Assembly (NCBI GenBank): GCA_005798685.1
Contig: SYIT01000074.1
Span: 27,639-91,638 of the forward strand
Direction of reading: 5' to 3'
Origin: Actinomycetota bacterium
Lineage (GTDB): Bacteria; Actinomycetota; Thermoleophilia; Solirubrobacterales; Solirubrobacteraceae
Length of the DNA stretch: 64,000 bases
Made by a program: the position numbers and the translations under genes. How positions within the stretch are numbered: the first letter of the stretch is position 1; every line of letters starts with the position of its first letter. Shown here piece after piece: positions 38,837 to 55,966 of the stretch. A model generated the notes under the pieces. That model was not told where the DNA came from. It saw nothing but the letters and a program-made list of their open reading frames with translations, and ran no database searches.

Positions 38837-38837
38837 G

Positions 38838-40159: not shown

Positions 40160-41654
40160 CCTAGATCACGGTGTGCTCAGCATCGGAGGCTGCGATGTCC
40201 TGCTGCCCGACGGCTCTGTTTCAGAGGGCGCTGGCCTGTGGATTGAGGACGGGCTTATCGCCGTTGCTCCTGCTGCCCCTGATCGGCAGGCCGAGCAGAT
40301 CGACGGCGATGGGATGTTGGCAATTCCAGGGTTGATCAACGCTCACAGCCACTCGCCCGAAGCCTGTCTGCGGGGTATTGGTGAAGGGCTAACGCTCGAG
40401 CCGTGGTTGATCATGATGTTTGCGTCTAGCGGCCTGTACAGCGAGCAGGACCACTATGACTGCGCACTGGCATCGGCGGCCGAGATGCTGCGGGCGGGGG
40501 TTACGACAGTCGTTGATCACCTCTGGATGACGCCGCCGAGTGGAGCCGCGATCGATGGCGCAATGCGGGCCTACCGTGACGCTGGCATCCGAGCGACGGT
40601 CGCCCCGCTGATGGGCGACCGCGATTACACGGAGGAGCTTGCCACCTCGGTCGGCATCGATCTAGGCGACGCCTCAATCGCCGCCCAGATCAAGCTGCTC
40701 ACCGCCGACGAGCTGATCGAGCTACTCAGCGGTGCGTTTGATCGCTGGCACGGCGCTGAGGGCGGTCGGCTGAGGATCTTGGCTGGCCCGAGCGGAATTC
40801 AGTGGGCATCGGACGAGTTGCTGGAGGGGCTCGCCGCGACGGCGCGGGCGAACGGTAGTGGGATCCACGTCCACCTGCTTGAAACTTTTGTGCAGGACGC
40901 GAGCTGTCGACTGCGCTTCGGTGGCAGCACCGTCGCAGCGCTCGACGACCTTGGCATCCTTGGCCCCGATTGCTCTTTCCCGCACAGCATTTGGCTTGAC
41001 GACGATGAGGTCGCGCTGATCGCAGAGCGCGGTGCGGTCGTCGTCCACAACCCTGCCGCCAATCAACGGCTTGGTTCGGGCCGGGCGCCGATCGCAGCCC
41101 TGCTCGACGCCGGTGCGACTGTTGCGCTGGGCACCGATGGCGCAGCCTCGTCGGACAACCACGACCTTTGGGACTGCGCCAAGCTCGCAGCGCTTATTCA
41201 CACCGACGGCGACAGCTGGGTAGACAGTGACCAGGCATTCGCGATGGCGACCATCGGCGGCGCTGCCGTCGCCGGTGGCCCTGCGCTACTCGGACGACTT
41301 GAGGTTGGCGCTCCGGCCGACGTCGTCTTGATTGAGCGCGACAGCCTTTGGCTGTCCGGAGCTCAGCAGATCGTCGCAAGCCTCGTCCTCTCCAACGGAG
41401 GTAAGGGCATTCGCCACGTACTTGTCGGCGGTCGGCCCGTCCTGCGTGACGGCGAACTGACCCTCGTAGACGAGAAGCAGACGATCAACAAACTTCGTGA
41501 ACAGACTGAGGCGCGGCGCGAAAGCGTTGCAAATCCGTCTGATCGCACGCGAGATGCGATGCGTCACATGGAGCAGGTCCGGGCTGTCGTAGCCGGGTTG
41601 GGGGCCACGGATGGCAAGGCTATGCAGTTTGTGGGTTTGGGAAAAAAAGGTTAG
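40146..41654 (+). CDS. amidohydrolase-superfamily deaminase/chlorohydrolase-like enzyme
   Basis: 'IPGLINAHSHSPEA' (HxH), 'HVHLLET', 'FPHSIWL', 'LGTDGAASSDNHD'. The GTG at 40146 overlaps the upstream gene by 14 nt. Confidence 0.82.
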   Translation: MPPSSLDHGVLSIGGCDVLLPDGSVSEGAGLWIEDGLIAVAPAAPDRQAEQIDGDGMLAIPGLINAHSHSPEACLRGIGEGLTLEPWLIMMFASSGLYSEQDHYDCALASAAEMLRAGVTTVVDHLWMTPPSGAAIDGAMRAYRDAGIRATVAPLMGDRDYTEELATSVGIDLGDASIAAQIKLLTADELIELLSGAFDRWHGAEGGRLRILAGPSGIQWASDELLEGLAATARANGSGIHVHLLETFVQDASCRLRFGGSTVAALDDLGILGPDCSFPHSIWLDDDEVALIAERGAVVVHNPAANQRLGSGRAPIAALLDAGATVALGTDGAASSDNHDLWDCAKLAALIHTDGDSWVDSDQAFAMATIGGAAVAGGPALLGRLEVGAPADVVLIERDSLWLSGAQQIVASLVLSNGGKGIRHVLVGGRPVLRDGELTLVDEKQTINKLREQTEARRESVANPSDRTRDAMRHMEQVRAVVAGLGATDGKAMQFVGLGKKG

Positions 41655-41743: not shown

Positions 41744-42775
41744 ATGAGAGGACTAAAGGGCTTGACCGCCTTAGGACTGACAGCAGTTGCGGCAGTGGGC
41801 GTGACGGCATGCGGGTCCAGCGATTCGAGTACCACGGAATCGACTGCGGCGAAATCGATCAAGGTCGCGATGGAACTGCCGGGACCGATCAATGACAAGG
41901 GGTTCAACGCTTCCGGTTATGCCGGGCTGATGAACTGCAAAGAGCAGGGTGCGACAACCACCTTTGCTGAGAAGGTTGCGGTTCCTGAGCAGGAGCGGAC
42001 GATGGAGGAGCTAGCCCAAAACAACGACGTTGTGATTGGTCACGGCTTCGAGTTCGGTGAGCCGGCTACGAAGCTGGCGCCGAAGTATCCGGATGTCAAG
42101 TTCGTGGTGACATCGAACCCGATCCCGCCGGAGGCGACGAATCAGGTAAACGTGATGCCGAACTCGACGCAGGGCGCGTATCTAGCTGGTGTAGCTGCCG
42201 GAAAGGCAACCAAGTCAAACAAGATCGGCGGAATCGGCGGTTTTGATTTCCCTGTGCTGAAGTCGCAGATGGAAGCACTTGAGGCTGGTGCGAAGTCGGT
42301 CAACCCGAACGCGACGACGAAAATCGTCTACCTCGGGACGTTCGATGACGTTTCTAAGGGCAAGGAAGCAGCGCAAAGCATGGCCGCATCGGGCATTGAC
42401 GTGATTTATCACATCGCCGACGCAGCCGGGATCGGCATCATCAATGGCGCACAGGCCGCCGGGATCAAGGCAATCGGTTGGGGCATCGACCAGAACTCGA
42501 TCGCGCCTGACACTGTGATCGCAAGTCAGATCGTCAAGACGGACGTGATGATCGGCGCTCAGTGCAAGGCAGCTATTGACGGCAAGTTTGTTGGCGGCAA
42601 AGTGGTTGTCAATGGCCTCAAGAGTGGGGTTATTGATCTGACCAAGGTCTACAACGAACCGGCCGATGTTCAGGCCGCAGTCGACAAGGCCAGGACAGCG
42701 ATTGAAGACGGCACCGAAAAGGGCGTGCCGGAGATTGCTCCAGGCATCCCATCAACCGGCCCTGAGAGCAACTAG
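41744..42775 (+). CDS. BMP-family (PnrA/Med-like) ABC transporter substrate-binding lipoprotein
   Basis: Lipobox 'GVTACGSS', 'PINDKGFNASGY', 'GGIGGFDFPVL'. GAGGAGG RBS upstream. Confidence 0.88.
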   Translation: MRGLKGLTALGLTAVAAVGVTACGSSDSSTTESTAAKSIKVAMELPGPINDKGFNASGYAGLMNCKEQGATTTFAEKVAVPEQERTMEELAQNNDVVIGHGFEFGEPATKLAPKYPDVKFVVTSNPIPPEATNQVNVMPNSTQGAYLAGVAAGKATKSNKIGGIGGFDFPVLKSQMEALEAGAKSVNPNATTKIVYLGTFDDVSKGKEAAQSMAASGIDVIYHIADAAGIGIINGAQAAGIKAIGWGIDQNSIAPDTVIASQIVKTDVMIGAQCKAAIDGKFVGGKVVVNGLKSGVIDLTKVYNEPADVQAAVDKARTAIEDGTEKGVPEIAPGIPSTGPESN

Positions 42776-42805
42776 AGCCCGGAACCAAGGAACACGAAGC
42801 GCGTC

Positions 42806-44320
42806 ATGACAGCACTGGTGAAAATGAGCGGGATCGTTAAGTCATTCGGCGAGACGATCGCCAACGATGACGTTTCGCTCGAGATCGCCGCCGGTGAGGT
42901 GCACGCACTGCTCGGCGAGAACGGGGCTGGCAAGACGACGCTGATGAACATCCTCTACGGGCTAACGATCCCGGACGAGGGAACGATCGAGGTTGGCGGG
43001 GTTGCCGTGGCACCACGGAACCCCGCCGACGCGATTGATGCAGGAGTTGGGATGGTCCACCAACACCCGCTCGTGGTTGGAGCGCTTACGGTGGCGGAGA
43101 ACTTCTCGCTCGGCGGGCTGGGTGACGGCTCTCCCGCTTCGATGCTTGAAGCGGTTGCCGATGTCGTGCAGACAATCCCACTTGAGGTTGATCCTAGGGC
43201 ACGAATCGACTCACTCCCGATGTCGCTCAGGCAGCGCGTGGAGATTGTTCGCTGCCTTGCGCACGGGGTCAGGGTTCTCGTGCTCGACGAACCGACCGCG
43301 GTACTGACCCCCAATGAGGTGCAGCAGCTCTTCGGCGAGATGGAGCGCGTCGTCGAACAGGGCCGAAGCGTCATCTTTATCACGCATAAGCTTGCCGAGG
43401 TCCAGACGATTGCACAGCGCGTGACGGTTCTGCGCCATGGACGCAATGTCGGCAGTTTCGCCGTCGGCGACATCACTTCAGCCGAGCTGGCAGAGCAGAT
43501 GGTGGGCCGAGAGTTGTCCGACCGTTCGGCGAAGGGCGCCCCGCGGGCAGCCGGCGCAGCCCGTCTGGAGCTCCGCGGCGTATGCGCGGTCGGCGATGAT
43601 GGCGAATGCCTGCTCGACAATCTTGACCTCGAGGTTTGTGCCGGCGAAATTGTTGCGATCGCCGGGGTGGAGGGAAATGGGCAACGGCCGCTTGCGGACA
43701 TCTGTTTCGGTTTGCGTGTTCCGGACTCAGGCGAGGTGCTCCATGATGACGAGCGGCTTCCTCAGCTAAGAGATTGGGGTCACTCTAAGGTTGCGATTGC
43801 GAGGATTCCGGAAGATCGCCGCCACGAGGGGCTTCTGATTGATTCGCCGCTCTGGGAAAATCTTCGCTACGGGCCGAACCTGTCAGCCAAGCGCGGGCTG
43901 ATCAACCGTCGGCACGAAGTTGCCCGCGCCCGTTCGCTACTCGAAGAATTCGGTGTCGTACCACCCGATCCAATGGTCGCTCCGTCGGCGCTCTCTGGTG
44001 GAAACCAGCAGAAGGTTGTGCTCGCGCGCGAGTTATCAAGTGATCCCGATCTGGTTGTTGCCGTGAACCCGACGAGAGGGCTTGACATCGGCGCCCAGCG
44101 CGACGTTCGCGACCGGCTGGCCGCGCTGCGCGACGCAGGCAGAGCGGTCCTCGTGATCTCGACCGACCTGGACGAAGTGATCGAGATCGGCGACCGGGTC
44201 GGTGTTCTCTATCGCGGTCGCCTCGAAACGCCAATCGCCCAAAACGCCGTTGATCGAGCCCGCATCGGTAAGGCGATGGCTGGGCTGCTGGATGATCAAC
44301 AGGACCGCGCAGAAGCATGA
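42806..44320 (+). CDS. ABC transporter ATP-binding protein, duplicated ATPase
   Basis: Walker A 'GENGAGKTTLMN', 'VLDEPTAVL', and second-half signature 'LSGGNQQK'. 504 aa. Confidence 0.92.
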   Translation: MTALVKMSGIVKSFGETIANDDVSLEIAAGEVHALLGENGAGKTTLMNILYGLTIPDEGTIEVGGVAVAPRNPADAIDAGVGMVHQHPLVVGALTVAENFSLGGLGDGSPASMLEAVADVVQTIPLEVDPRARIDSLPMSLRQRVEIVRCLAHGVRVLVLDEPTAVLTPNEVQQLFGEMERVVEQGRSVIFITHKLAEVQTIAQRVTVLRHGRNVGSFAVGDITSAELAEQMVGRELSDRSAKGAPRAAGAARLELRGVCAVGDDGECLLDNLDLEVCAGEIVAIAGVEGNGQRPLADICFGLRVPDSGEVLHDDERLPQLRDWGHSKVAIARIPEDRRHEGLLIDSPLWENLRYGPNLSAKRGLINRRHEVARARSLLEEFGVVPPDPMVAPSALSGGNQQKVVLARELSSDPDLVVAVNPTRGLDIGAQRDVRDRLAALRDAGRAVLVISTDLDEVIEIGDRVGVLYRGRLETPIAQNAVDRARIGKAMAGLLDDQQDRAEA

Positions 44321-45378
44321 CCATCGAAAGGTTTATTCCCGCGCTTACCCGGGGCGCCGTGGCGTTGATCGGCACCTTGGCCGTCGGCCTCGTCGCCGTT
44401 CTCGCGGCCGGGCTGGATCCGGTCACGACTCTTCAGGCAATCATCGACGGGGCGCTCGGAAGCCCATACGCAATCCGTCAGTCGCTGACCGAGGCCGTGC
44501 CCGTAACTCTTACGGCGCTGGGGGTGGCGGTTGCGTTCCGCGCTGGCCTGTTCAACCTCGGCGGCGACGGGCAGATCTACATCGGCGCGCTTGGCGCCGT
44601 GGGGATCTCGCTGCTCTTCCCAGATCTGACGCCGGCTCTCTTGATCCCGTTCGCGCTAGGTGTTGGAATGCTCGGGGGGCTTATTTGGGGAGGCATCGCC
44701 GGCGTGTTGCGTGCGAAGTTGAGGCTCTCCGAAATCATCACGACGATCATGCTCAACTTCATTGCCTTTTGGATCGTCAGCTACCTGGTGCATGGTCCAC
44801 TGAAAGATCCGGGGGGGAGCGGCTACCCGCTTACGCGCGAGATCCCCGAGGCGGCCCAGCTGCCGGTCTTTGGTGATCTGATCCCCTCTGGAGCGGTCCT
44901 GATGCTGGTGGCAGCATTCTGCGTCTGGCTCCTGCTGGAGAGGACGCCAACGGGCATCAAGATCAAGGGTACGGGTTCGAGCGCCTCGGCAAGCCATTTC
45001 GCGGGCGTGTCGATGAGCCGGGTAACGATTCTCGTTATGGCGATCGCGGGCGCTTTGGCTGGTCTTGGAGGCGCTGTCAGCCTTCAGGGAGATCAGTACA
45101 AGCTTGGTGATTTCTTCAGCCCCGGGTGGGGTTTCGACGCCGTAGCCGTAGCCTTGATTGGACGCGGAACAGCTGCCGGGACCCTAATTACAGGCATCGC
45201 AGTCGGGGCGCTTCGCAGTGGGATTCAGAGCGCCCAAGGGACGGCTGAGGTCCCATCGTCGATCGCCCAAATACTGCTTGCAGCGGCGGTCCTCTTTGTG
45301 ATCGTCGGTAATGCCGAGGGCGCGGGCCAACTTGTCCGCCGAAGCTGGGCCCGGACGAGAGAATTGGCCAGTGAGTGA
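44317..45378 (+). CDS. ABC transporter permease
   Basis: Polytopic. 'GLFNLGGDGQIYIGA' is typical of BMP/ribose-type permeases. ATGA overlap. Confidence 0.88.
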   Translation: MTIERFIPALTRGAVALIGTLAVGLVAVLAAGLDPVTTLQAIIDGALGSPYAIRQSLTEAVPVTLTALGVAVAFRAGLFNLGGDGQIYIGALGAVGISLLFPDLTPALLIPFALGVGMLGGLIWGGIAGVLRAKLRLSEIITTIMLNFIAFWIVSYLVHGPLKDPGGSGYPLTREIPEAAQLPVFGDLIPSGAVLMLVAAFCVWLLLERTPTGIKIKGTGSSASASHFAGVSMSRVTILVMAIAGALAGLGGAVSLQGDQYKLGDFFSPGWGFDAVAVALIGRGTAAGTLITGIAVGALRSGIQSAQGTAEVPSSIAQILLAAAVLFVIVGNAEGAGQLVRRSWARTRELASE

Positions 45379-46303
45379 TCTCTTTGACATCGTAACCTCG
45401 GCAACGCTCTACGCGGCGGCGATCAGGCTCGCTTTGCCGATCTTCCTCGCGGCGCTTGGCGAAACATTTGCTGAGCGCGCCGGGCTCGTAAATGTAGGTC
45501 TTGAAGGGATGATGCTGATGGGTGCCTTTGGCGCCGTGCTTGGCTCGGACGTCACCGGCAGTGCGTTGGCGGGCGTGGCGATAGGGCTGCTCTTCGCGGT
45601 TCTCGTTGCGGCGATTCAGGGTTTCGTTTCGATCAATTTTGGTGGGGATCAGATCGTCTGCGGTATCGCGCTCAACATCGGCGCGCTGGGCGTCACGGCC
45701 TTCCTGGTTAGAGCTATATGGGAAGGTGGTAACGCTCCCCAGGTCGCAGGTTTCTCGGCTTTTGACCTGCCCCTGCTAGCGAACGCTCCATTCGTCGGGG
45801 TAGCGGTCTTCCAGCAGGGTATTTTCGTCTATGTCGCGCTCGTGTTGGCGTTGATCAGTTGGTGGGCACTGATGAAAACTGGCTGGGGGCTGCGGATGCG
45901 TGGATGCGGCGAGGACCCATTGGCCTGCGAAAGTCTTGGTATCCCAGTCAAGCGCTTGCGTTGGCAAGCAATGCTGATCTGCGGTGCATGCGCCGGGCTA
46001 GGTGGCGTCTTCCTAGCTCTGGGTCAATTACTGACTTTCAGCGACGGGATGAGCGGCGGCCGTGGCTTCATCGCGCTCGCGGTCGTAATCATCGCGCGTT
46101 GGTCGCCAATGCTGGCGGTTCCGTCTGCGCTGTTGTTCGGTGCAGTAGAGGCGTTCGCGCTTCGCGTCCAGAGTTCTGATCTCAATGTTCCACCGGAACT
46201 GATGCTCGCGTTGCCGTATCTCGCAACGATCATCGTCTACGCGATCGTCGTCGGCCGCAGCAACCCGCCGGCGGCGCTCGGGCGAACCTATGTACGTCAA
46301 TGA
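45371..46303 (+). CDS. ABC transporter permease
   Basis: 'AERAGLVNVGLEGMMLMGA'. The GTG at 45371 overlaps the upstream permease by 8 nt. The track start is 45311. Confidence 0.88.
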   Translation: MSDLFDIVTSATLYAAAIRLALPIFLAALGETFAERAGLVNVGLEGMMLMGAFGAVLGSDVTGSALAGVAIGLLFAVLVAAIQGFVSINFGGDQIVCGIALNIGALGVTAFLVRAIWEGGNAPQVAGFSAFDLPLLANAPFVGVAVFQQGIFVYVALVLALISWWALMKTGWGLRMRGCGEDPLACESLGIPVKRLRWQAMLICGACAGLGGVFLALGQLLTFSDGMSGGRGFIALAVVIIARWSPMLAVPSALLFGAVEAFALRVQSSDLNVPPELMLALPYLATIIVYAIVVGRSNPPAALGRTYVRQ

Positions 46304-46323: not shown

Positions 46324-47235
46324 ATGTCAGTTACGCAACCTTATTCGCTTCGAGTGGCCGCATACCAGCCAGCCGTTATTGCTTCCGAGCCTGAAGCCTC
46401 GCGCGTTGATGAGGCAGCCGAGGCAATTCGCCTCGCTTCGACCGATGGCGCTCAGCTGATCGTCTTCCCAGAGGGTTACCCGGGGCCGCTCCGAGCATCG
46501 GCAGACTACGACGCGGCGCCGGCGATCTCACAGGCGGCAGCCAGCGCCAACTGCGCGGTCTGCTGGAGCCGTATAGAACGATGCGATGACGGTCGCTACC
46601 GCAAGGTTGCCTACCTAATCAACGAGAAGGGTGAGCAGGTTCTCCGCTACGAGCGCGCCCACCCGGCGACCGGCGATATTCACCCGGCGCTCTCGGGGGT
46701 CTCACTTGCGCCCGGGCCAGAGCTCGGGATCGCAGAGCTCTTCGGCATCACGGTTGGCGTGCTTATCTGCTCCGAGCTGTGGCTTCCCGAAGTGTCTCGC
46801 TCACTTGTAGTGAGTGGCGCCGAGTTGCTCCTCGCTCCCGCCGGGGGTGGCTTTGGAAAGGTCGCTCCAAACTGGCAGCTGATAGCCCGCGCACGAGCGA
46901 TCGAGAACGAGGCCTATGTCGTCCTTACTCAGCACCTCTTTGGAGGAGAGGAAGGCGCAGCACTGATCGCTGGCCCGGAGGACTTGGTGAGCGAGTCGAA
47001 GAAGGCCGGCGTGCTGCTTGGCGATCTTGACCTTGCGAGGCTCCGCTGGCTGCGTGAGACTGACGATTCAATGGCGAATCCGAAGCCTTTCACTTCGCTC
47101 CCCGGCTTGTTGCGTGCTAGGCGACCGCAGCTTTACGGCGTGCTCAGCGCGCCTGCTGATGGCCTCTACGACTACGAAGGCAAGGCCACTCCGGCTGACT
47201 TTGTCGCGCCGAGCGCGCCTCCCGGGGTGTCATGA
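46324..47235 (+). CDS. carbon-nitrogen hydrolase (nitrilase superfamily)
   Basis: E-K-C triad context: 'LIVFPEGY', 'YRKVAYL', 'VLICSELWLPE'. Confidence 0.85.
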   Translation: MSVTQPYSLRVAAYQPAVIASEPEASRVDEAAEAIRLASTDGAQLIVFPEGYPGPLRASADYDAAPAISQAAASANCAVCWSRIERCDDGRYRKVAYLINEKGEQVLRYERAHPATGDIHPALSGVSLAPGPELGIAELFGITVGVLICSELWLPEVSRSLVVSGAELLLAPAGGGFGKVAPNWQLIARARAIENEAYVVLTQHLFGGEEGAALIAGPEDLVSESKKAGVLLGDLDLARLRWLRETDDSMANPKPFTSLPGLLRARRPQLYGVLSAPADGLYDYEGKATPADFVAPSAPPGVS

Positions 47236-48344
47236 GCACCGGTTGGGTTTGGGACGAGCGCTACATGTGGCATGACACCGGCCACGCAGCGGCGTTCCTG
47301 ACTGCGGGCGGCGTGCTTGAGCCCGATGAGCATGTTGAACGGCCCGCGACCAAGCGACGACTGCGCAATCTGCTCGAAGTGAGTGGGATGCTTGAGCAGC
47401 TAACGCCGATTAAGGCTCGCGAAGCAACGCCTGAAGAGTTGACGCGAGTGCACAGCTCAGCGCACGTAGAGCACGTTCAGCAGGTCAGCGCCAACGGAGG
47501 CGGCATGGCTGGTGATCAAACGCCGATCGGCCCGGGTGGCTACGAGATCGTGGCTCTCGCTGCTGGAGGCGCGATCGCTGCTGTCGATGCTGTCATCGGC
47601 GGTGAAGTCGACAATGCTTACGCACTGATCCGGCCTCCGGGCCATCACAGCGGCATCGATCAGAGCCTTGGCTTCTGCGTCTTCAACAACGTCGCTGTCG
47701 CGGCTGAGCATGCGCGCGCTGTCCACAGATTGGATCGGGTAGCAATCATCGATTGGGACGCCCACCACGGCAACGGAACGCAAGAGATCTTCTGGGATCA
47801 GCCAAGGGTTTTGACGATCTCCGTCCATCAGGACGGCGGCTATCCGCCCCGGTCAGGTCTCGTTGACGAACGTGGTTCGGATAAAGCGCTCGCAACAAAC
47901 ATCAACATCCCGCTACCTCCCGGATCAGGAGTAGGCGCATACGAGGCTGCGATCGGTCAGATTGTCGTTCCCGCCCTTCACGCCTTCCGGCCAGATCTGA
48001 TCATCGTCGCCTGCGGCTTTGACGCCAGCCCGATGGATCCGCTCGCGCGGATGATGGTTCACAGCGCCGGCTTCGCTGAGATGACTGCCTCCGTGATGGC
48101 CGCCGCCGATCAACTCTGCGGTGGGCGGCTTGTCTGCTGCCATGAGGGCGGCTACGCAGCGCCGTACGTTCCTTTCTGTGGGCTCGCCGTGATCGAGACG
48201 CTGAGCGGCCACAGCAGCGGCGTCGAGGACCCATTTCTCGGTGGCTATTCGTCACTTCCGTTCCAGGAGCTTCAGCCACACCAAGCCGCGGCGATTGAGT
48301 CCGCTTTCCCCGATCTAGCGAAGCTCAAGGAGGCCGCATCGTGA
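47232..48344 (+). CDS. histone-deacetylase-family amidohydrolase (acetylpolyamine/acetoin-utilisation type)
   Basis: 'IRPPGHHSG', 'IIDWDAHHGNGTQ', 'CCHEGGY'. ATGA overlap. Confidence 0.88.
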   Translation: MSTGWVWDERYMWHDTGHAAAFLTAGGVLEPDEHVERPATKRRLRNLLEVSGMLEQLTPIKAREATPEELTRVHSSAHVEHVQQVSANGGGMAGDQTPIGPGGYEIVALAAGGAIAAVDAVIGGEVDNAYALIRPPGHHSGIDQSLGFCVFNNVAVAAEHARAVHRLDRVAIIDWDAHHGNGTQEIFWDQPRVLTISVHQDGGYPPRSGLVDERGSDKALATNINIPLPPGSGVGAYEAAIGQIVVPALHAFRPDLIIVACGFDASPMDPLARMMVHSAGFAEMTASVMAAADQLCGGRLVCCHEGGYAAPYVPFCGLAVIETLSGHSSGVEDPFLGGYSSLPFQELQPHQAAAIESAFPDLAKLKEAAS

Positions 48345-49282
48345 GCGTCAAGCTGAACCGCGCGCAGCTCGTCAAGTCATCGAGCTCGACCCCGAACCCG
48401 CCCTACGGGGTAGACCCCAAGCTGACCTTCTACTGCCCTCAGGAGAACCTCGAGGCGCTCGATATTCCGGTAGTCAAGCACTTCTTGCGCTGGGCCGAGG
48501 ACGATTACAAACCGGCGTCGACGAAGAAGCCCAAGGTCCTCTTGCTGTTGCCGTGCCAGAAGGTCAAGCCTTACGCGATCTCGCCGGAACACCTCGCGAT
48601 CAACAGCTATCTGCTCGCTGCCGGCTATGCGCCGATGGAACGCGGCGATTGGCCGGAAGAGATCGGCGAACTTGCTGCCGGCCCGCTGCTTAGCAACGGC
48701 CCGCTTGAAGGCCACGGTTTGCAGATTGATCGCGCCGTCATCTCCGAGCCGTTTGGCTTCGTTCCCTACTCAGCGATGTACTACTGGAACGGCAAGCTCT
48801 CGCCCTGTGGCCAGTACGACGATCCAGGCCTGTTCGCGCACCGCGGGTTGGCGTGCACGTGGCGCAGCGACAATACCGCTGTGCCGCAAGATGGGAAGTG
48901 GCGCTGGGGAGACAACGAACGCGCCGCCTACGTCGAGGTTCACAACCGTCTTGCGGAGTCGATGGCAACGGCGCTCAGCCGTATTGCCTCTAACTACGAG
49001 GCAATCTACGCCTACGTCGCACCGGCGTTGACGCACCGGTCGTTCATTGTCGATCGCGCCCAGAGTACGGCCGCCGGAATGTCCAACGCTCGCCGGGTCG
49101 GCTCGCAGATACGCCCGCTGGTTGGTGTAAATGACCTCGTGCCGGGGCTCGTAAATCTCGTCCCCGACGCAACGCAGTTGGGGCGCCTGCGCAAGCAGAT
49201 GGGCGGCAGACTGCCGGCAAAACTGCTGTCTACCGACCCCGCGCTCAGACTGTTGACGACTGCAATCGGAGCCAATCGATGA
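48341..49282 (+). CDS. hypothetical protein carrying the ArcS C1-domain (DUF5591-type) PC-X3-KPY-X2-S-X2-H motif
   Basis: nt 48551-48592 encode P-C-QKV-K-P-Y-AI-S-PE-H within 'KVLLLLPCQKVKPYAISPEHLAI'. No TGT or PUA domain visible. Start/stop overlaps on both sides (GTGA upstream, ATGA downstream). Confidence 0.6.
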   Translation: MSVKLNRAQLVKSSSSTPNPPYGVDPKLTFYCPQENLEALDIPVVKHFLRWAEDDYKPASTKKPKVLLLLPCQKVKPYAISPEHLAINSYLLAAGYAPMERGDWPEEIGELAAGPLLSNGPLEGHGLQIDRAVISEPFGFVPYSAMYYWNGKLSPCGQYDDPGLFAHRGLACTWRSDNTAVPQDGKWRWGDNERAAYVEVHNRLAESMATALSRIASNYEAIYAYVAPALTHRSFIVDRAQSTAAGMSNARRVGSQIRPLVGVNDLVPGLVNLVPDATQLGRLRKQMGGRLPAKLLSTDPALRLLTTAIGANR

Positions 49283-50454
49283 CTATCGGATCACTGGAAA
49301 TTCGCAACCTCGGCGGCCTCGTCAGCGGTCGACTCGATGATTCGCTTCAGAGCGTGAACGAGATCCGCTGCGAGGATGGCCGGATCGTCGCGCTGGAGTC
49401 GGGCGGCGACGCCGATCTGGTGATCGACGCCTGCGGCGCAATCGCGGCTCCGGGGCTGATCGATTCTCACGCCCACGTCGTCTTTGGTGACTGGACGCCG
49501 CGCCAGTCAACTCTTGGCTGGATCGAGAGCTACATGCACGGTGGGGTGACGATGATGATGTCAGCCTCTGAGGTTCACCTTCCAGGACGACCGGCCGACC
49601 GAGAGGGAGTAAAGGCGCTGGCGATTACGGCCCAGCGTGCCTTTGCAGATTTCCGGCCCGGCGGGGTAAAGGTGCTTGCCGGGTCGGTGATCATCGAACC
49701 GACGCTCGAACCCTCAGACTTCGATCAAATGGCGGCGGCTGGAGTGAAGCTGGCGAAGGTCGGCTTCGGTGATTTCGACAAGCCCGCCGATGCTGCACCG
49801 CTGGTGCGAGCTGCTCAGGCCGCAGGAATGATCGTGATGAACCACACCGGTGGCGCATCTATTCCAGGCTCACGGCCGGTCACGGCGGAGGACTGCATCA
49901 CGCTCGGCTGCGACTTCATTGGCCACGCAAACGGTGGCCCAACGTCGCTGCCCGACGAAGATCTTCCGCTGCTGCTTGATGCCGCGGGCGCGATCCAACT
50001 GGTTCAGGCCGGAAACCTTCGCTCCAGTCTGCTGCTGCTTGAGTTGGCCCGCGAGCGAGGCGCGATGGAGCGGATCGTGATCGCGACCGACACCCCTACT
50101 GGAACCGGGGTCATGCCACTCGGGATGATCAAGACCGTGACCGAGCTCTCGTCGCTGGGCGGTATTTCCGCTAGCGATTCGCTAGCGATGGCGACAGGAA
50201 ACAACGCCCGCGTGCTGCGCCGCGAGGAGGGGATCCTCGAAGTCGGCCGACCGGCTGATTTCGCGCTGCTCGAGCCGCCTCTCGGGGGCGCCGCGGACAA
50301 CGCGCTGGCCGCGATCGAGAGGGGCGATCTGCCCGGCATCTCGGCCGTGGTGATTGACGGCGCGCTGCGAGCCCTGCGCTCACGAAACGCGCCAGCATCT
50401 ACGAACCCCGCCGCAGTTATCTCCGGGAACCTTCCAGCAGCGTTCAGGAATTGA
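49279..50454 (+). CDS. amidohydrolase-superfamily enzyme, enamidase-like
   Basis: 'APGLIDSHAHVVFGDWTPRQSTLGWIESYMHGGVTMMMSA', 'HLPGRP', 'MNHTGGASIPGS', 'IGHANGGPT'. The enamidase-like call is from my memory of that family's blocks. Confidence 0.7.
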   Translation: MTIGSLEIRNLGGLVSGRLDDSLQSVNEIRCEDGRIVALESGGDADLVIDACGAIAAPGLIDSHAHVVFGDWTPRQSTLGWIESYMHGGVTMMMSASEVHLPGRPADREGVKALAITAQRAFADFRPGGVKVLAGSVIIEPTLEPSDFDQMAAAGVKLAKVGFGDFDKPADAAPLVRAAQAAGMIVMNHTGGASIPGSRPVTAEDCITLGCDFIGHANGGPTSLPDEDLPLLLDAAGAIQLVQAGNLRSSLLLLELARERGAMERIVIATDTPTGTGVMPLGMIKTVTELSSLGGISASDSLAMATGNNARVLRREEGILEVGRPADFALLEPPLGGAADNALAAIERGDLPGISAVVIDGALRALRSRNAPASTNPAAVISGNLPAAFRN

Positions 50455-50508: not shown

Positions 50509-51933
50509 ATGTCGAATTCCTCAACTTCACTCGAAATCACCGGCCCCGGCGGCGGAGCTCCGCTCGGCGAGGTTGAGCTGACCCCGGTCGGTCAGGTCAG
50601 CGCGATAGTCGGAGCTGCGTGCAAGGCGCAGCCGGAATGGTCAAGGCGGACCGTCGCCGATCGCGCGGCGCTGCTTGAAGTCGCCGCCGACCTGCTCGAC
50701 CCGCAGAGCGAAGAGCTGTCGCTGTTGCTCGCCTCGGAGGCAGGGAAGCCGATAGACCAAGCGAAGTTTGAGATACGCGCATCGATCGGTCTGCTGCGCA
50801 GCAACGCACGCGAGGCGTGCCGCACCGCCGGGGGGCACGTGCTGCCAACAGAGGGCCTCAAAGGTGTTGACCGCGATTTCGTATACACGCGCCGCGAGCC
50901 ACTCGGCGTAGTGGCGGCAATCCTTCCGTTCAACTTCCCGGTCGAGCTCTACGTTGAGAAGTGCGCCGCGGCGCTGGTCGGCGGCAACGCCGTTGTCGTC
51001 AAGCCGCCGCTGGAAGACCCGCTCGCCGTGATGCGCTTCCACAAGGCTCTCCATGACGCTGGCGTGCCGACCGACGTTCTCGCAAGTGTGCTCGGCGATC
51101 GTGACGTTGGGGCGGAGCTCTCTCAAGCGGATGGCATCGCCGCCGTCTCGTTGACTGGCTCGACCGTGGCCGGGCTGGCAGTTGCCAAGGCCGCCGCTCC
51201 GACGCTTCGGCGGCTCCACCTGGAGCTCGGCGGCAACAACGCATCGCTCATCTTGAACGATGCTGACATTGAGTTGGCGGCATCAGAGCTCGTGCGTGGC
51301 CGCTTGCTGATGAACGGGCAGGCCTGCTCCGCAAGCAAGCGGATTGTCGTCGATCGCTCGCTGCACGACGAGCTCGCCGAGCGAATCGCCGCCGCCGTCG
51401 CTCTGCAGCGCGTGGGGTCGGCGACCGATCCTGAAACGACGATCGGCCCGCTGATTACAGCTGCCGCAGCAGAGCGGGTTGTAGCTCAAGCGGAGCGTGC
51501 GATCAGTGAAGGCGCATCGATCATCGGGGATGCCCCTGCCGCCGACGGCGCGTACGTAGCGCCGATGGTTCTCACGGAAGTCCCGGCTGCGGCTGCTGTG
51601 GCGAGCGACGACGAGATCTTCGGACCGGTCTTCAACCTGATTCCCGTCGACTCCGTCAGCGAGGCAATCGAGGTCGCCAACTCGTCGAGCTTCGGGCTGA
51701 TGTCGAGCGTCTTCAGCGCTGACGTCAAACGCGCCGTCGCAGTCGCCGAGAGGCTCCACTCGGGTGGCGTCGTGGTCAATGGAACCGACAACTATCGCCC
51801 ACCCGTAATTCCTTTCGGCGGCGTCGGACTCTCCGGAACTGGCCGCGAGGGGATCGGCTACACGATTGACGAGCTGACCCGTGAGAAGACAATTGTCCTA
51901 CGCAACTTTCGTGAACCAGAAGAGGAGCTGTAA
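50509..51933 (+). CDS. NAD(P)-dependent aldehyde dehydrogenase
   Basis: 'LELGGNNA' and catalytic Cys in 'NGQACSASKR'. 474 aa. Confidence 0.9.
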   Translation: MSNSSTSLEITGPGGGAPLGEVELTPVGQVSAIVGAACKAQPEWSRRTVADRAALLEVAADLLDPQSEELSLLLASEAGKPIDQAKFEIRASIGLLRSNAREACRTAGGHVLPTEGLKGVDRDFVYTRREPLGVVAAILPFNFPVELYVEKCAAALVGGNAVVVKPPLEDPLAVMRFHKALHDAGVPTDVLASVLGDRDVGAELSQADGIAAVSLTGSTVAGLAVAKAAAPTLRRLHLELGGNNASLILNDADIELAASELVRGRLLMNGQACSASKRIVVDRSLHDELAERIAAAVALQRVGSATDPETTIGPLITAAAAERVVAQAERAISEGASIIGDAPAADGAYVAPMVLTEVPAAAAVASDDEIFGPVFNLIPVDSVSEAIEVANSSSFGLMSSVFSADVKRAVAVAERLHSGGVVVNGTDNYRPPVIPFGGVGLSGTGREGIGYTIDELTREKTIVLRNFREPEEEL

Positions 51934-52571
51934 TGAGCAACCCCCGCCCAGTAGCCGGTGAAGCGACGCTCGTCGAGTCGGTTGAGGTCCCTGCAGGCGA
52001 ATCACGTTTCATCAACGTCAGGAAGGGCCAGATCCTTCAGCTTGTAGATCTCTACGGCGACCAGGTTGGTGACTTTGTCGCCTACAGAACAGACAAGCCT
52101 GACGAGTACCTCTCGCCAGCCCATACCTGTTCCTGCCTTACCAAGCTTACGCCCGAGATCGACGACGCGCTCTACTCAAACCACCGTCTGCCGCTACTGC
52201 GGATTGAGGCCGATGACGTAGGGCACCACGACTTCGTTGTGCCTTGCTGTGACCCTGAGCGCTATTCGGTTGATTACGACCTACCGGACCACCCGTCTTG
52301 CCTCGCCGGATTGCAGAAGGGGCTCGACGCGTTTGGCTCCGACTGGCCACTGCACGGTGAACTTGCCGCCAATATCTTCATGAACAACGTCGTAACGCCC
52401 GAAGGCCGGATCGAGACATTTGCACCGACCCACGGCGCCGAATCGGCTATCGATCTCGAAGTACTCGAGGATCTCGTTGTCGGACTGGTCGCCTGCCCGC
52501 AAGATCTCTCGCCTTGCAACAACTTTGATCCGACGGATATGGCGATCCGTGTTTGGGAGCGCCAAGGGTGA
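51933..52571 (+). CDS. DUF1989 / urea-carboxylase-associated family protein
   Basis: 'VPAGESRFINVRKGQILQLVDLYGDQVGDFVAY', 'GHHDFVVPCC', 'LVACPQD'. 1-nt overlap with the ALDH stop. Confidence 0.75.
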   Translation: MSNPRPVAGEATLVESVEVPAGESRFINVRKGQILQLVDLYGDQVGDFVAYRTDKPDEYLSPAHTCSCLTKLTPEIDDALYSNHRLPLLRIEADDVGHHDFVVPCCDPERYSVDYDLPDHPSCLAGLQKGLDAFGSDWPLHGELAANIFMNNVVTPEGRIETFAPTHGAESAIDLEVLEDLVVGLVACPQDLSPCNNFDPTDMAIRVWERQG

Positions 52572-53224
52572 GGGAGGACGTCGCAGATGCCGCGCGAATT
52601 TGCGCGCGGATGGGACTGGTCGAAGCTTTCGGTCACGTCTCTGCGCGGCTGCCCGAGGGTGGGTTCATGATCACGGCGACCCGGCCGTTGCCTGGCGCCC
52701 GCGCTGCAGAGGTGCTTCAGCTCAGCGATGAGGGCGAGATCATCAGCGGCGACGCCGAGTTACTGCCGTTGGAGACGCCGCTGCATGTCGCGATCTACGC
52801 GGCACGCCCCGATGTTGGAGCCCTTTGCCGTACGCACTCGCCGCACGCAGTTGCTTGGGGCGCTCGCAGCGCGGTGCCGCCGCTCGTTATCGGCCTCGAT
52901 GGCTTGAGTGGAGAAATAGCACTGCACGATGACACCGATCTCGTCGTCGAGATCGCCGCCGGCGCGGCCGCCGCCTCCAGCATGGGTGATGCAGATTGCC
53001 TGCTGATTCGGGCCAACGGCAACATCTGCAGCGGCGGCTCCCTCGGTGGGGCTGTGGTGCGCGCCTGGTTCCTCGAACAACGCGCGGCGAACGCAGCGCG
53101 CATCGGCGACGCAGCGCCGCTCGAGGGCGAGCAACTCGCACGCCGCTCGCGGCACTACGACGTTGAGCTCGTTCGCGCCTGGCGCTGGTGTCGTGCGCAG
53201 TTTGGTGATGGAGATCAGCTTTGA
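52568..53224 (+). CDS. class II aldolase/adducin-family protein
   Basis: 'AARICARMGLVEAFGHVSARL', 'CRTHSPHAVAW'. The GTG at 52568 gives a GTGA overlap. The track start is TTG at 52553. Confidence 0.8.
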   Translation: MREDVADAARICARMGLVEAFGHVSARLPEGGFMITATRPLPGARAAEVLQLSDEGEIISGDAELLPLETPLHVAIYAARPDVGALCRTHSPHAVAWGARSAVPPLVIGLDGLSGEIALHDDTDLVVEIAAGAAAASSMGDADCLLIRANGNICSGGSLGGAVVRAWFLEQRAANAARIGDAAPLEGEQLARRSRHYDVELVRAWRWCRAQFGDGDQL

Positions 53225-53253
53225 GCAAATCAGTCAATAACCCGGGAGGGAAA

Positions 53254-54300
53254 ATGAGAGAGAATAAATCAGCAGTAATGCGTCGTTCGTTTGGAGCAGC
53301 AGCTGTAGTTGCTGCACTCACGCTCGCCGCCTGTGGTGGCAGCGACTCAACAAACTCCGGTGGTACCGCCACCGAAGGCTCGGCGAAGCTGAAGAACATG
53401 ACTAAGGCGACGTTGATCCTCGACTTCCTGCCAAACGCAGTTCACGCAGGGATCTACCGAGCGGCCGCGGCGGGGTACTACGCCGACAACAACATCGACC
53501 TGAAGATCATTCAGCCGACGTCGACCGCAGACACGTTGAAGCTGATCGAGGCCGGCAAGGCCGACTTCGGAATTGCTGACGGTATTGACGTGGCAACGCA
53601 GATTGATCAAGGCCGCGGCGCGAAGGCGATCATGGCGGTCGTTCAGCGCCCGCTCGGTGGTCTGATCTCGCTTAAGTCAGAAGGCCTTACCGACGCTGCT
53701 GCGTTCAATGGCAAAACGGTCGGTTTGACCGGTGTGCCGTCAGACACGGCGATTCTCGACACGATCCTCGAGAACGGGGGCGAAAGTACCGACAGCGTCA
53801 AGAAGGTGACAATCGGATTCAACGGCGTTCAGAATCTTGAAAGCAAGAAGATCAACGGGTTCGTTGGCTTCTATCCGGCAGACGGAGTTCAAGTTGAAGA
53901 GGACGGGTTCCCGATCAACGTCCTCGAGTTTGATGAGAACGGCGGCCCGAAGTACCCAGGGCTGGTTGTCTTCTCTACCGAGAAGCGAATCAAGGAGGAT
54001 CCGGCGCTGATGAACGCGTTCGTCGATGCCACGGTTCAGGGCTACGACGACACGATCAAGGATCCGGCTCAATCACTCAACGACCTGCTCGCCGCCAATA
54101 AGGCGATGAAGCGGGACATCACGAAGGCCCAGCTCGACGCTTATCTGCCGCTCTTCTCGGCAGGCGCGAAGAACTACGGCGTGATCGACGAGGCGAACAT
54201 CGAGGCACTCTCGACCTTCCTCGTTGACAAGAAGCTGATCAAGGCACCGATCGCGCCTAGCCGGTTTGACACCAACGAGTTCGTACCTACAGGCAACTAG
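53254..54300 (+). CDS. NMT1/THI5-like ABC substrate-binding lipoprotein (NitT/TauT family)
   Basis: Lipobox 'LTLAACGGS', 'LILDFLPNAVHAGIYRAAAAGYY'. ATG at 53254 (track start 53221). Confidence 0.85.
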   Translation: MRENKSAVMRRSFGAAAVVAALTLAACGGSDSTNSGGTATEGSAKLKNMTKATLILDFLPNAVHAGIYRAAAAGYYADNNIDLKIIQPTSTADTLKLIEAGKADFGIADGIDVATQIDQGRGAKAIMAVVQRPLGGLISLKSEGLTDAAAFNGKTVGLTGVPSDTAILDTILENGGESTDSVKKVTIGFNGVQNLESKKINGFVGFYPADGVQVEEDGFPINVLEFDENGGPKYPGLVVFSTEKRIKEDPALMNAFVDATVQGYDDTIKDPAQSLNDLLAANKAMKRDITKAQLDAYLPLFSAGAKNYGVIDEANIEALSTFLVDKKLIKAPIAPSRFDTNEFVPTGN

Positions 54301-55100
54301 TGACTGAGACTGCTCCCCGGCTCCGGATTAAAAATCTGGGCAAGTCGTTCCCGGCTAGATCCGGGCACGACGCAATGACCGCGCTTGAGGGCGTGGACAT
54401 TGACATCCGGGCTGGGGAGTTCGTCTCGATCATCGGCCCTAGCGGTTGCGGGAAATCAACGCTGTTCAACATGCTGGCGGGGCTGATCAAGCCCTCGGCA
54501 GGGAAGATCTATCTAGACGGCGGCGAACCTGATTCGCTGCTCGGGAAGATCGGCTACATGCCGCAGAAGGATCTCCTGATGCCGTGGCGGACCGTGCTCG
54601 ACAACGTCACGCTGGGCCTTGAAATGGATGGAACGCGCCGTCGTAAGGCGCGAGCGCAGGCGATGGAGGAGCTTCCACGCTTCGGCTTGAAAGGCTTTGA
54701 GCAGCGCTGGCCGCGCAGCCTCTCTGGTGGAATGCGCCAACGGGCTGCGCTACTGCGCACGTTTCTAGCTGGCCGCGAAGTGATGCTGCTAGATGAGCCA
54801 TTCGGTGCGCTAGACGCGCTAACCCGCCAGGCAATGCAGGAGTGGCTGCTTGAGCTTTGGGCAACCGACCGCAAGACCGTTGTTTTCATCACGCATGATG
54901 TTGAAGAAGCCGTTTACCTCTCTGACCGCGTGCACGTGATGTCAGGGCGCCCAGGCCGCGTTGAGCTCTCGCTCGACATCACACTTCCACGCCCGCGCTC
55001 ATATGAGATGACTGTCAGTCCGGAATTTAACGCCCTTAAGCAACAGCTACTTGAGCCCCTTCACGAGGCGTCGCGCAAGCAGATGGAGGAGGTGCGCTGA
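54300..55100 (+). CDS. ABC transporter ATP-binding protein (NitT/TauT family)
   Basis: 'GPSGCGKSTL', 'LSGGMRQR', 'LLDEPFGALD'. Confidence 0.92.
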   Translation: MTETAPRLRIKNLGKSFPARSGHDAMTALEGVDIDIRAGEFVSIIGPSGCGKSTLFNMLAGLIKPSAGKIYLDGGEPDSLLGKIGYMPQKDLLMPWRTVLDNVTLGLEMDGTRRRKARAQAMEELPRFGLKGFEQRWPRSLSGGMRQRAALLRTFLAGREVMLLDEPFGALDALTRQAMQEWLLELWATDRKTVVFITHDVEEAVYLSDRVHVMSGRPGRVELSLDITLPRPRSYEMTVSPEFNALKQQLLEPLHEASRKQMEEVR

Positions 55101-55966
55101 TGGAGGCTGCTCCACAGCGCGTCGCGTTACCAACGCGCGAAACGCCGCCCCCTGGGACCCCAATATCGGTTCGCCTGCGCGCGCGGCTCCGCCGCTTCGC
55201 GCCGCCGCTGACATTCGCACTGCTGGTGCTCGGTATTTGGCAGCTCTATTGCACGGTCTCTTCCATTCCGGAGTCGAGCCTGCCAGCGCCAACTGAGATC
55301 TTCTCCGCTCTGATCACAGAACGCGCGCTGCTGGCGGAGAATGCCTGGGTGACGATCCAAGAGATAGCGATCGGCTACCTAGCCGCGATCATCCTCGGAG
55401 TCGGGCTGGCAGTGCTGATCTGCTCATCGAAGATGATCGAGCGCGCGGTCTACCCTTGGCTGGTCGTTTCTCAAATGGTCCCGATCGTCGCGATCGCGCC
55501 GATCATCGTGATTTGGACGGGCTTCGACCTGCGTCCGAAAATCATCGTGATCGCGCTCGTCAGCTTCTTCCCGATCGCCGTCAACACGATCGATGGCCTG
55601 AAAGCAACAGACCCGGAGATGACGAACTTGCTGAAGACATTTGGCGCCAAGCGCTGGGCGCGCTTCAAGACGGCGCAGTTCCCAGCCGCGCTGCCGTTCA
55701 TCTTCTCCGGCCTGCGGATCGGCGCTGCACTCTCCGTCATCGGCGCGGTATTCGCCGAATGGGTCGGTTCATCCGAGGGGCTCGGCTACCTAATCCTGAC
55801 CTTCAACAACCAGACCTCGACAACCGAGATGTTCGCTGCCGTGATTGTCCTTGCCTTCATTGGGCTAGCGCTATTCGCGCTCGTCGGCCTGCTTCAGCGC
55901 CTTACGATCCCTTGGTACGAAGACGCGCGGTTCGATGATGCTGATGGTCATGAGGGCGGCTCGTGA
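55100..55966 (+). CDS. ABC transporter permease (NitT/TauT family)
   Basis: Polytopic with an EAA-like loop 'TFGAKRWARFKTAQFPAALPFIFSGLRIG'. TGATG overlap with the ATPase gene. Confidence 0.88.
   Translation: MEAAPQRVALPTRETPPPGTPISVRLRARLRRFAPPLTFALLVLGIWQLYCTVSSIPESSLPAPTEIFSALITERALLAENAWVTIQEIAIGYLAAIILGVGLAVLICSSKMIERAVYPWLVVSQMVPIVAIAPIIVIWTGFDLRPKIIVIALVSFFPIAVNTIDGLKATDPEMTNLLKTFGAKRWARFKTAQFPAALPFIFSGLRIGAALSVIGAVFAEWVGSSEGLGYLILTFNNQTSTTEMFAAVIVLAFIGLALFALVGLLQRLTIPWYEDARFDDADGHEGGS

Follow-up and report, generated by a model that had tools for sequence, protein, structure and literature searches.

The gene at positions 48341 to 49282 (+ strand) of a 64,000-nucleotide stretch of DNA from an Actinomycetota bacterium of the family Solirubrobacteraceae (contig SYIT01000074.1 of assembly GCA_005798685.1, positions 27,639 to 91,638; the whole stretch is hereafter called the window) encodes a stand-alone protein of 313 amino acids that carries the signature of the catalytic C1 domain (DUF5591) of archaeosine synthase, ArcS. 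On balance, we favour the explanation that this protein is a cytoplasmic, enlarged DUF5591/ArcS-C1 enzyme within a conserved cluster that breaks down or salvages an imported heterocycle rich in nitrogen, and that its residue Cys72 acts at a nitrile or amidine carbon. A catabolic or salvage role directed at small molecules is likely. The more specific proposal of thioimidate chemistry at a nitrile or amidine, which is drawn by analogy, is tentative, and a 7-deazapurine substrate is quite improbable.

The protein retains the core motifs of ArcS (Cys72, Lys76, Pro77, Tyr78, Ser81, His84, an ISxP...VP block and a YD pair), and the residues of these motifs are under strong purifying selection. The nucleic-acid-binding and base-exchange domains have been lost or were never present. 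There is also a conserved linkage of the gene to an ATP-binding cassette (ABC) importer, to COG0402 aminohydrolases and to other C-N hydrolases, and it is transcribed together with importer and hydrolase genes. The gene and its motifs are located as follows.

48327 to 48333, + strand: Shine-Dalgarno sequence AAGGAGG, 7 nucleotides before the GTG start of the DUF5591 gene, seen in the sequence.
48341 to 49282, + strand: stand-alone, expanded DUF5591 (ArcS C1-like) gene, 313 amino acids, based on the open reading frame (ORF), its translation, homologues, an AlphaFold2 (AF2) model, hhalign and a Foldseek search of BFVD.
48434 to 48448, + strand: CPQEN block (C32-N36) in an N-terminal extension, specific to the bacterial clade, from the alignment.
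48551 to 48592, + strand: ArcS signature PC-X3-KPY-X2-S-X2-H (P71-H84), PCQKVKPYAISPEH, from the translation, the 31-sequence alignment and 134 homologues.
48728 to 48769, + strand: second motif in common with ArcS cores, DRAVISEPFGFVPY (amino acids 130-143), which corresponds to IISSPLVVPREF in the archaeal protein AF0587 and to VISNGGVIPQQF in ArcS2 of Vibrio phage nt-1, from hhalign.
48815 to 48829, + strand: third common motif, YDDPG (amino acids 159-163), versus NYDTP or NYDGDP in ArcS cores, from hhalign.
49031 to 49045, + strand: THRSF block, specific to the bacterial clade, after the beta-strand at 221-225, from the alignment and the model.

The ORF begins with GTG, and the gene overlaps its neighbours on both sides by 4 nucleotides, through GTGA with a gene for an HDAC-like protein upstream and through ATGA with an enamidase-like amidohydrolase gene downstream. 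A first-pass annotation of the window had noted both codon overlaps. The same annotation had pointed to the ArcS signature, and the residues at positions 71-84 indeed fit it exactly. The six-frame translation of the window contains a single match to the pattern, for which 7.3e-6 would be expected given the window's own residue composition, and 126 of 134 full-length homologues carry the signature without a mismatch. C72, K76, P77, Y78 and H84 are invariant in the 31-sequence family alignment, and C72 is the presumed nucleophile. The YDDPG motif is kept in 127 of the 134 homologues. Other well-conserved positions are characteristic of the bacterial clade, including C32, P33, E35 and N36, which are invariant in the alignment (Q34 is conserved in at least 90% of sequences, and CP.EN is found in 123 of the 134 homologues), as well as H232, R233 and F235 of the THRSF block. 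The clade-specific invariant residues further comprise R131, R168, W174, R175, W189 and H201. A Pfam scan finds neither a TGT nor a PUA domain in the 313 amino acids, its sole match being a sub-threshold DUF5591, and so the claim that both domains are missing stands.

Profile comparisons extend the relationship beyond the signature. The bacterial family was represented by an alignment of 31 sequences (A1), and the ArcS cores by four sequences, namely residues 12-178 of AF0587 as reconstructed from HMMER alignments, the archaeal ArcS fragment P0196, the experimentally validated nt-1 ArcS2 (located at L083:38904-39584) and ORF75 from Methanobacterium virus PhiF1. Local alignment with hhalign gives a probability of 96.4% (E 1e-9, 86 columns, query 45-181) and global alignment gives 98.1% (E 8e-13, 159 columns), with reversed and column-shuffled controls reaching at most 0.1%. 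The alignment of further motifs and the clean controls indicate that the signature is not a chance match. A single archaeal match came from a homologue search with the AF0587 fragment, and none from a scan of ArcS2 against viral contigs, and therefore the ArcS reference alignment is small (effective number of sequences, Neff, ~2.4). The Pfam model PF17884 is matched by all 31 aligned family members at E<=0.01 (best E 2.6e-9), and nine scanned relatives score 27.9-33.5 bits, over the gathering cutoff of 26. A bridging relative, P0176, covers positions 1-77 of this model (E 1.6e-10), and P0196 covers positions 46-149 and carries pre-PUA and PUA domains besides. The sole PDB sequence match of the family profile is 2q07 (AF0587), at E 0.0017, and phmmer with the window protein places the same entry at E 0.74. 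We are confident that the homology of the bacterial clade to the ArcS C1/DUF5591 core is real, but it is remote.

An AF2 model computed from A1 has a predicted local distance difference test (pLDDT) score of 93.8 and a predicted TM (pTM) score of 0.92, and it places Cys72 at the C-terminal end of strand beta1. When this model is searched with Foldseek against the viral structure models of BFVD, the sole significant match is the DUF5591/ArcS2 protein of Vibrio phage nt-1 (probability 1.00, E 8.6e-4; TM 0.58 for the target and 0.44 for the query, root-mean-square deviation 5.8, 14% identity). The bacterial protein is longer than the ArcS core by ~160 residues. Additions in the bacterial clade are the N-terminal CPQEN extension, inserts at ~89-122 and ~163-200, and a C-terminal region of ~90 amino acids, to which the invariant H232-R233 belongs.

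There are 377 homologues of this protein across phyla, and they are 40-96% identical to it. An exhaustive HMMER search yields 77 clusters at 50% identity, and a scan of ~186,000 species genomes gives 191 matches, the closest genomes being metagenome-assembled genomes of an Actinomycetota bacterium (96%) and a member of the Solirubrobacteraceae (87%). Carriers of the cluster include Thermoleophilia, Acidimicrobiia (sponge symbionts among them), Chloroflexota, Acidobacteriota, Alphaproteobacteria and one member of the Lachnospiraceae. NCBI has already named some relatives 'DUF5591 domain-containing protein', and other members of the clade are 'hypothetical' in public databases. This labelling is inconsistent because, throughout the clade, PF17884 recognises just the first ~47 of its 150 positions, and because the window protein lies under the gathering score. 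One homologue, P0140 (730 amino acids), joins a LacI-family regulator, with a helix-turn-helix and a periplasmic-binding-like domain, to a DUF5591 protein of the clade, either as a true fusion or through a mis-call. If real, this fusion would tie the enzyme to a ligand-sensing regulator.

The DUF5591 gene is number 12 in an array of 25 genes that all run in one direction from 36495 to 63997, with gaps of at most 89 nucleotides and many overlaps of 1-4 nucleotides. The lines below give the genes in their order along the array, in which DUF5591 itself stands between the HDAC-like gene and the enamidase homologue.

36495 to 40159, + strand: IclR regulator, dihydropyrimidinase/hydantoinase-like protein (AhD), isochorismatase-like (RutB/BiuH-like) hydrolase (Iso) and AA_synth (PF06684), from family searches.
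40044 to 41654, + strand: COG0402-type aminohydrolase (AhC), similar to 8-oxoguanine, ammeline and formiminoglutamate deaminases, from family searches.
41744 to 46303, + strand: Bmp/PnrA-type ABC importer of four genes, with a substrate-binding protein, an ATPase and two permeases, from Pfam.
46324 to 47235, + strand: CN_hydrolase, a divergent nitrilase-superfamily protein, from Pfam and NCBIfam.
47232 to 48344, + strand: HDAC-like (HDAH-type) amidohydrolase (Pfam Hist_deacetyl, E 5e-86), whose stop codon overlaps the DUF5591 start.
49279 to 50454, + strand: enamidase homologue (AhA), whose start codon overlaps the DUF5591 stop (PDB 2vun, the Eubacterium barkeri enamidase, E 1e-88).
50509 to 53224, + strand: aldehyde dehydrogenase, DUF1989 protein (CgdAB/Tdm family) and class II aldolase/decarboxylase-like protein (AldII), from family searches.
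53221 to 57345, + strand: NMT1/THI5-type ABC importer (three genes) and a second COG0402 aminohydrolase (AhB), from family searches.
57373 to 63997, + strand: distal part of the array, with a CrtI/CrtO-like FAD oxidoreductase, an O-methyltransferase-fold protein, a thiamine diphosphate (ThDP) enzyme, a class-III aminotransferase and a TIM-barrel protein, from family searches.

The nitrilase-superfamily gene, the importer, the Hist_deacetyl protein and the enamidase homologue had been recognised correctly in the first-pass annotation. The closest PDB relatives of the HDAC-like protein are bacterial deacetylases, HDAH, and propanil and dimethoate hydrolases. For the Bmp substrate-binding protein, the best NCBIfam match is a putative vitamin-B6 binding protein (a weak match), and its PDB relatives include AtzT, which binds atrazine and guanine.

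For a view of this arrangement in other genomes, 80 species-level loci were fetched and the window genes and seven de novo neighbour families were mapped onto all of them. The neighbour counts given here refer to the 50 loci with full flanks of 10 kb on either side, which come from at least 5 phyla. A COG0402 aminohydrolase of the AhB or AhC type is present in 46 of these, and an ABC importer of any kind in 41 (24 for the Bmp type). The enamidase homologue occurs in 31 loci, the aminotransferase in 30, and the six-gene module of AhD, Iso, AA_synth, enamidase, DUF1989 and AldII in 29. The linkage of importer and hydrolase genes is kept in at least 5 phyla. The most common direct neighbours of the DUF5591 gene are those for DUF1989 (13 loci) and AldII (11 loci).

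A recurring gene order, AhD, Iso, AA_synth, enamidase, DUF1989, DUF5591, AldII, aminotransferase, AhB, FAD oxidoreductase, O-methyltransferase-fold protein and GntR, is found in Acidimicrobiia, including sponge symbionts, and in Actinocorallia, and some Chloroflexota have it with a block that is partly inverted. One of three different ABC importers accompanies these genes. In Solirubrobacterales the order is AhC, Bmp ABC, CN_hydrolase, HDAC-like and DUF5591, with or without the other module, and in Anaerolineae it is CN_hydrolase, AhC, DUF5591, Bmp ABC and aminotransferase. Alphaproteobacteria have an amidase, AhC and DUF5591 alongside flavin monooxygenases. A minimal unit in one Lachnospiraceae genome consists of IclR, DUF5591, Bmp ABC, MatE and Amidohydro_1.

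The importer itself varies by lineage among three types, which are the Bmp/PnrA type, the NMT1/THI5 type and a third whose substrate-binding protein belongs to no Pfam family. Two of these types are present in the window (41744-46303 and 53221-55966), with their substrate-binding proteins encoded at 41744-42775 (Bmp type) and 53221-54300 (NMT1 type), the third type is known from Actinocorallia loci, and variation in importer type is also seen at loci L037, L043, L054, L057, L066, L070, L073 and L074. The pair formed by the FAD oxidoreductase and the O-methyltransferase-fold protein (57373-60008) is kept in ~22-24 of the 50 loci across phyla, which is odd for a degradative pathway. The best NCBIfam match of the oxidoreductase is the beta-carotene ketolase CrtO, at 309 bits with a cutoff of 1000. 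Upstream of the IclR gene and divergent from the array is a molybdoenzyme of the xanthine-dehydrogenase/CODH family (29245-35950, - strand), with the following parts.

30193 to 32544, - strand: large subunit.
32541 to 33563, - strand: FAD subunit.
34637 to 35950, - strand: XdhC.

It is plausible that this molybdoenzyme carries out a ring-hydroxylating first step on an N-heterocycle.

Partner genes of a nucleic-acid modification system were sought with the QueD-like, FolE, ORF390, QueC and ORF392 proteins of phage nt-1 as tblastn queries, and neither the window nor the 80 loci contain homologues of FolE, QueC, QueD-like or DpdA-like proteins (E<=1e-3). There is likewise no radical-SAM or TGT gene among the 25 annotated genes of the cluster or among the recurrent neighbour families, for which ~10 kb on either side was examined. 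A link between the class-II aldolase of the cluster and DpdL, the phage decarboxylase of 7-carboxy-7-deazaguanine (CDG), was considered and ruled out because DpdL is a paralogue of QueD. The first-pass annotation had argued for a substrate other than tRNA. Since the gene sits in a conserved cluster for small-molecule uptake and hydrolysis that has no genes for deazapurine or nucleic-acid modification, this is a sensible inference.

One possibility for the pathway is that the heterocycle is brought in by the ABC importer, after which the enzyme would act in the manner of the ArcS core, with Cys72 adding to a nitrile or amidine carbon (sp or sp2), either on the heterocycle or on a ring-opened intermediate. 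By analogy with QueF and QueF-L, a thioimidate-type adduct might form, and its resolution could involve water, or ammonia or an amine that is either lost or taken up. The flanking amidohydrolases, the DUF1989 protein, the deacetylase, the aminotransferase and the aldehyde dehydrogenase would then process the product. Perhaps the clade-specific Arg, His and Trp residues and the CPQEN block, judged from their conservation in sequence, build a new pocket for a small molecule, which would replace the RNA-binding domains. In its fullest form, the proposal would make the clade a small-molecule branch of the ArcS core, whose thioimidate-forming enzyme would create or cleave the C-N bond of an amidine or nitrile in an undescribed multi-phylum catabolism of an N-heterocycle that bears such a group or gives rise to one, and we regard this version as possible but doubtful.

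Two groups of compounds fit the conserved gene set as ligand candidates. The first consists of 7-deazapurines from tRNA, DNA or antibiotics (archaeosine, preQ0, preQ1, toyocamycin). Here the amidine or nitrile would be converted to a carboxylate, which might then be removed by the class-II-aldolase-type enzyme, with deamination by a COG0402 enzyme. Oxidation by the Mo-hydroxylase, opening of the pyrrolinone by the enamidase-type enzyme and opening of the pyrimidine by the dihydropyrimidinase- and RutB-type enzymes could follow. The second group consists of 2-methylpyrimidines derived from thiamine, for which ring opening would give an acyclic acetamidine that the DUF5591 enzyme might convert to an N-acetyl amine, and the HDAC-like deacetylase, the aminotransferase and the aldehyde dehydrogenase would then act in turn. 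The COG0402 family, by annotation, includes formiminoglutamate deiminase and guanine-type deaminases, all of which hydrolyse amidine or guanidine carbons, and carboxyguanidine deiminase belongs to the DUF1989 family (PMC11271267). To name a specific 7-deazapurine or nitrile as the substrate would be pure inference, and no riboswitch, preQ0-pathway gene or literature was found to support such a choice.

A number of results weigh against the explanation that we favour. PF17884 scores the window protein at 21.7 bits (E 1.9e-4), under the cutoff of 26, and aligns its amino acids 45-89 to only positions 1-42 of 150. Matches in the bacterial members as a whole are confined to positions 1-47. The NCBIfam equivalog models for ArcS give the window protein 19.9 and 19.3 bits versus cutoffs of 440 and 600, and the hhalign comparison of A1 with ArcS2 alone is weak (42 columns). 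Foldseek finds no significant match in the PDB, where 2q07 is not among the top 50 and there are only weak Rossmann-like matches, such as a short-chain dehydrogenase/reductase (SDR) and a signal recognition particle (SRP) GTPase, and therefore the fold support is that of the BFVD match. The relationship to DUF5591 to which the first-pass annotation had pointed holds at the level of the family, as judged from the 96% hhalign probability, the ArcS2 fold match and the 31 of 31 relatives on PF17884, but the window protein itself does not pass the Pfam cutoff as some of its relatives do, and the structure of AF0587 was not recovered.

Further points of this kind concern the substrate and the chemistry. 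No Rfam riboswitch is found in the window at the gathering threshold, in the 5' part of the cluster at E<=0.1, or in 14 loci. The thioimidate mechanism for the cysteine is an analogy with QueF and QueF-L, and in the literature found, no catalytic role of the signature residues has been demonstrated. CN_hydrolase is present in only 15 of the 50 fully flanked loci. Thus, the nitrilase and HDAC-like context that had been put forward is true of the window but is not general, since the HDAC-like gene is found in only 12 loci, and the constant partners are instead a COG0402 aminohydrolase and an ABC importer. Public annotations around the homologues are generic and give no clue to the substrate. A search of plasmids for a carrier with a known phenotype yielded only pRACO34Ac, whose annotations are equally generic and uninformative about the substrate. 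Neither the gene cluster nor a catabolic setting for the bacterial clade was described in the literature that was searched, which likewise gave no substrate clue.

The variant cluster on pRACO34Ac, a 494-kb non-mobilizable plasmid of Rhizobium sp. ACO-34A, contains the sole plasmid-borne homologue (L087, 115998-146885). It includes an HpaB-type monooxygenase, two genes of the polysaccharide-deacetylase family, an annotated '8-oxoguanine deaminase', an aminotransferase and an aldehyde dehydrogenase, and an annotated pyridoxal 4-dehydrogenase gene lies ~11 kb upstream.

Four other explanations were weighed. It is unlikely, though worth consideration, that the protein is a non-catalytic or accessory subunit, serving as a scaffold, in substrate channelling or in metal delivery for the DUF1989, enamidase-like or HDAC-like hydrolases, and that the motif is kept for binding. 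DUF1989 and AldII are the commonest direct neighbours of its gene, with stop/start overlaps, ArcS itself works in a complex with RaSEA, and DUF1989 enzymes, CgdAB among them, form hetero-oligomers in which inactive cognates take part. In addition, the sequence suggests that the invariant C32, C72, H84, H201 and H232 could build a metal site. However, strong purifying selection acts across phyla on the whole ArcS signature and on two more core motifs, and DUF5591 is also found where DUF1989, enamidase and HDAC-like genes are absent. In minimal units its only companions are an importer and a COG0402 hydrolase, and hence no one partner is indispensable.

We likewise assign a low probability to an enzyme that works in the ArcS direction in salvage or biosynthesis, coupling an amine (lysine or ammonia, for example) to a nitrile-bearing small molecule to form an amidine. 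This is the sole reaction demonstrated for the superfamily, and the conservation of the O-methyltransferase-fold protein and the CrtI-like oxidoreductase in the cluster would be in keeping with it. However, the cluster is dominated by importers, IclR and GntR regulators of the catabolic type, at least 5 C-N hydrolases, an aminotransferase and an aldehyde dehydrogenase, and neither core enzymes of a recognisably biosynthetic kind nor a radical-SAM partner are found in it.

It is very improbable that the protein is a genuine modifier of nucleic acids, an ArcS2-like synthase of archaeosine or deoxyarchaeosine that makes an amidine from the preQ0 of tRNA or DNA and is located in a catabolic operon by happenstance. 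The exact ArcS signature would be expected of such an enzyme, the best fold match is a stand-alone C1 domain that acts on DNA, and more divergent bacterial DUF5591 proteins do occupy islands of the defence or DNA type. Nevertheless, homologues of DpdA/TGT, PUA, FolE, QueC and QueD are absent from the window and the 80 loci, the translationally coupled linkage to an importer and C-N hydrolases is kept across at least 5 phyla, and the ~160 added residues contain clade-specific invariant positions. PADLOC models match neither the window protein nor the divergent DUF5591 proteins nor ArcS2. Finally, the idea that an unrelated Rossmann-like protein has come by the signature through chance or convergence, which the weak PDB matches in place of 2q07 and the restriction of the Pfam match to ~45 residues might suggest, is hardly credible given 7e-6 expected matches in the window, a profile-profile alignment that spans two more motifs at 96-98% probability with clean controls, a top BFVD match that is itself a DUF5591 protein (probability 1.00) and the bridging relative P0176 (Pfam positions 1-77, E 1.6e-10).

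The divergent proteins form a group apart. P0176 (L084, 759-1886) is encoded near a Csm6_6H/Cas_Cas02710 protein and a BrxC/AAA-like gene. P0188 (L086, 8001-9023) has the gene of a DUF2400 protein on one side and that of a NERD/UvrD-type helicase on the other, and DUF3427/NOV_C and SNF2 helicases are close by. These two proteins, from islands that resemble those of defence or DNA metabolism, may be nucleic-acid-directed enzymes similar to ArcS2.

The amine-to-nitrile chemistry of DUF5591 is so far known only in the modification of archaeal tRNA and viral DNA, and a bacterial clade that functions in uptake and hydrolysis operons would extend it to free metabolites. The clade is also a handle on a catabolic cluster of ~25 genes that occurs across several phyla. 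If it were true that the substrate is a 7-deazapurine, this would answer how widespread modified bases are mineralised, and in any case the clade offers a new enzyme type for the biotransformation of amidines or nitriles. Because several carriers have been cultured, among them Actinocorallia aurantiaca JCM 8201, Microbacterium aquimaris KCTC 19124, Falsiroseomonas stagni DSM 19981, Ciceribacter sichuanensis S101, Parvibaculum sedimenti HXT-9, Conexibacter woesei and Rhizobium sp. ACO-34A, the hypothesis is directly testable.

Among known systems, the closest in sequence features is archaeal ArcS. This enzyme forms an amidine by joining lysine, through its epsilon-amine, to the preQ0 nitrile, and the enzyme of Thermococcus kodakarensis accepts free preQ0 nucleoside and its 5'-monophosphate in vitro (PMC11298593). 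The radical-SAM enzyme RaSEA completes archaeosine (G+) after the lysine transfer by ArcS. The euryarchaeal proteins, such as those of T. kodakarensis and M. jannaschii, have the signature, the (V/I)IS-x-P...VP block and the YD-x-P motif in the same order as the window protein, and chemistry at a nitrile or amidine carbon is probably common to both. In contrast to ArcS, which has a TGT-like N domain, C2/pre-PUA and PUA domains and RaSEA as its partner, the window protein has none of these, is bacterial, is encoded in a catabolic cluster, carries ~160 added residues and scores ~20 bits on equivalog models with cutoffs of 440-600 bits. It is not an archaeosine synthase, as its architecture, equivalog score and partner genes all show.

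Stand-alone C1 domains have been described in phages or viruses and in some archaea (PMC10516641), and therefore the architecture alone is not novel. Vibrio phage nt-1 ArcS2 (VPFG_00169), a stand-alone core that makes deoxyarchaeosine (dG+) in DNA (PMC10516641), and a protein of Sulfolobus virus STSV2 are DNA modifiers that consist of DUF5591 on its own, and the window protein is also a single-domain protein. However, nt-1 ArcS2 has 226 amino acids and is encoded beside QueD-like, FolE, QueC and DpdA2 proteins, whereas the window protein has 313 amino acids, none of these neighbours and ~14% identity to it. By context, the window protein is not a DNA modifier of the ArcS2 type. AF0587 (PDB 2q07), an archaeal protein with DUF5591, pre-PUA and PUA domains, aligns with the family over the signature, ISSP and YD blocks, but it carries the PUA domain that the window protein lacks, and Foldseek did not pair the two structures.

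QueF and QueF-L, in which a conserved cysteine attacks the nitrile of preQ0 to form a covalent thioimide that is resolved by hydride or ammonia (PMC5485725), are mechanistic analogues only, since their T-fold is unrelated and the similarity is therefore not one of homology. Other relatives of the cluster are found in pathways of N-heterocycle catabolism. The enamidase of nicotinate fermentation in Eubacterium barkeri has its homologue here (E 1e-88), and the Rut, Pyd, Hut and guanidine/CgdAB clusters have relatives among the dihydropyrimidinase-like, RutB-like, HutF-like and DUF1989 proteins. Literature searches among the known N-heterocycle pathways found none described with this gene set or with a DUF5591 protein.

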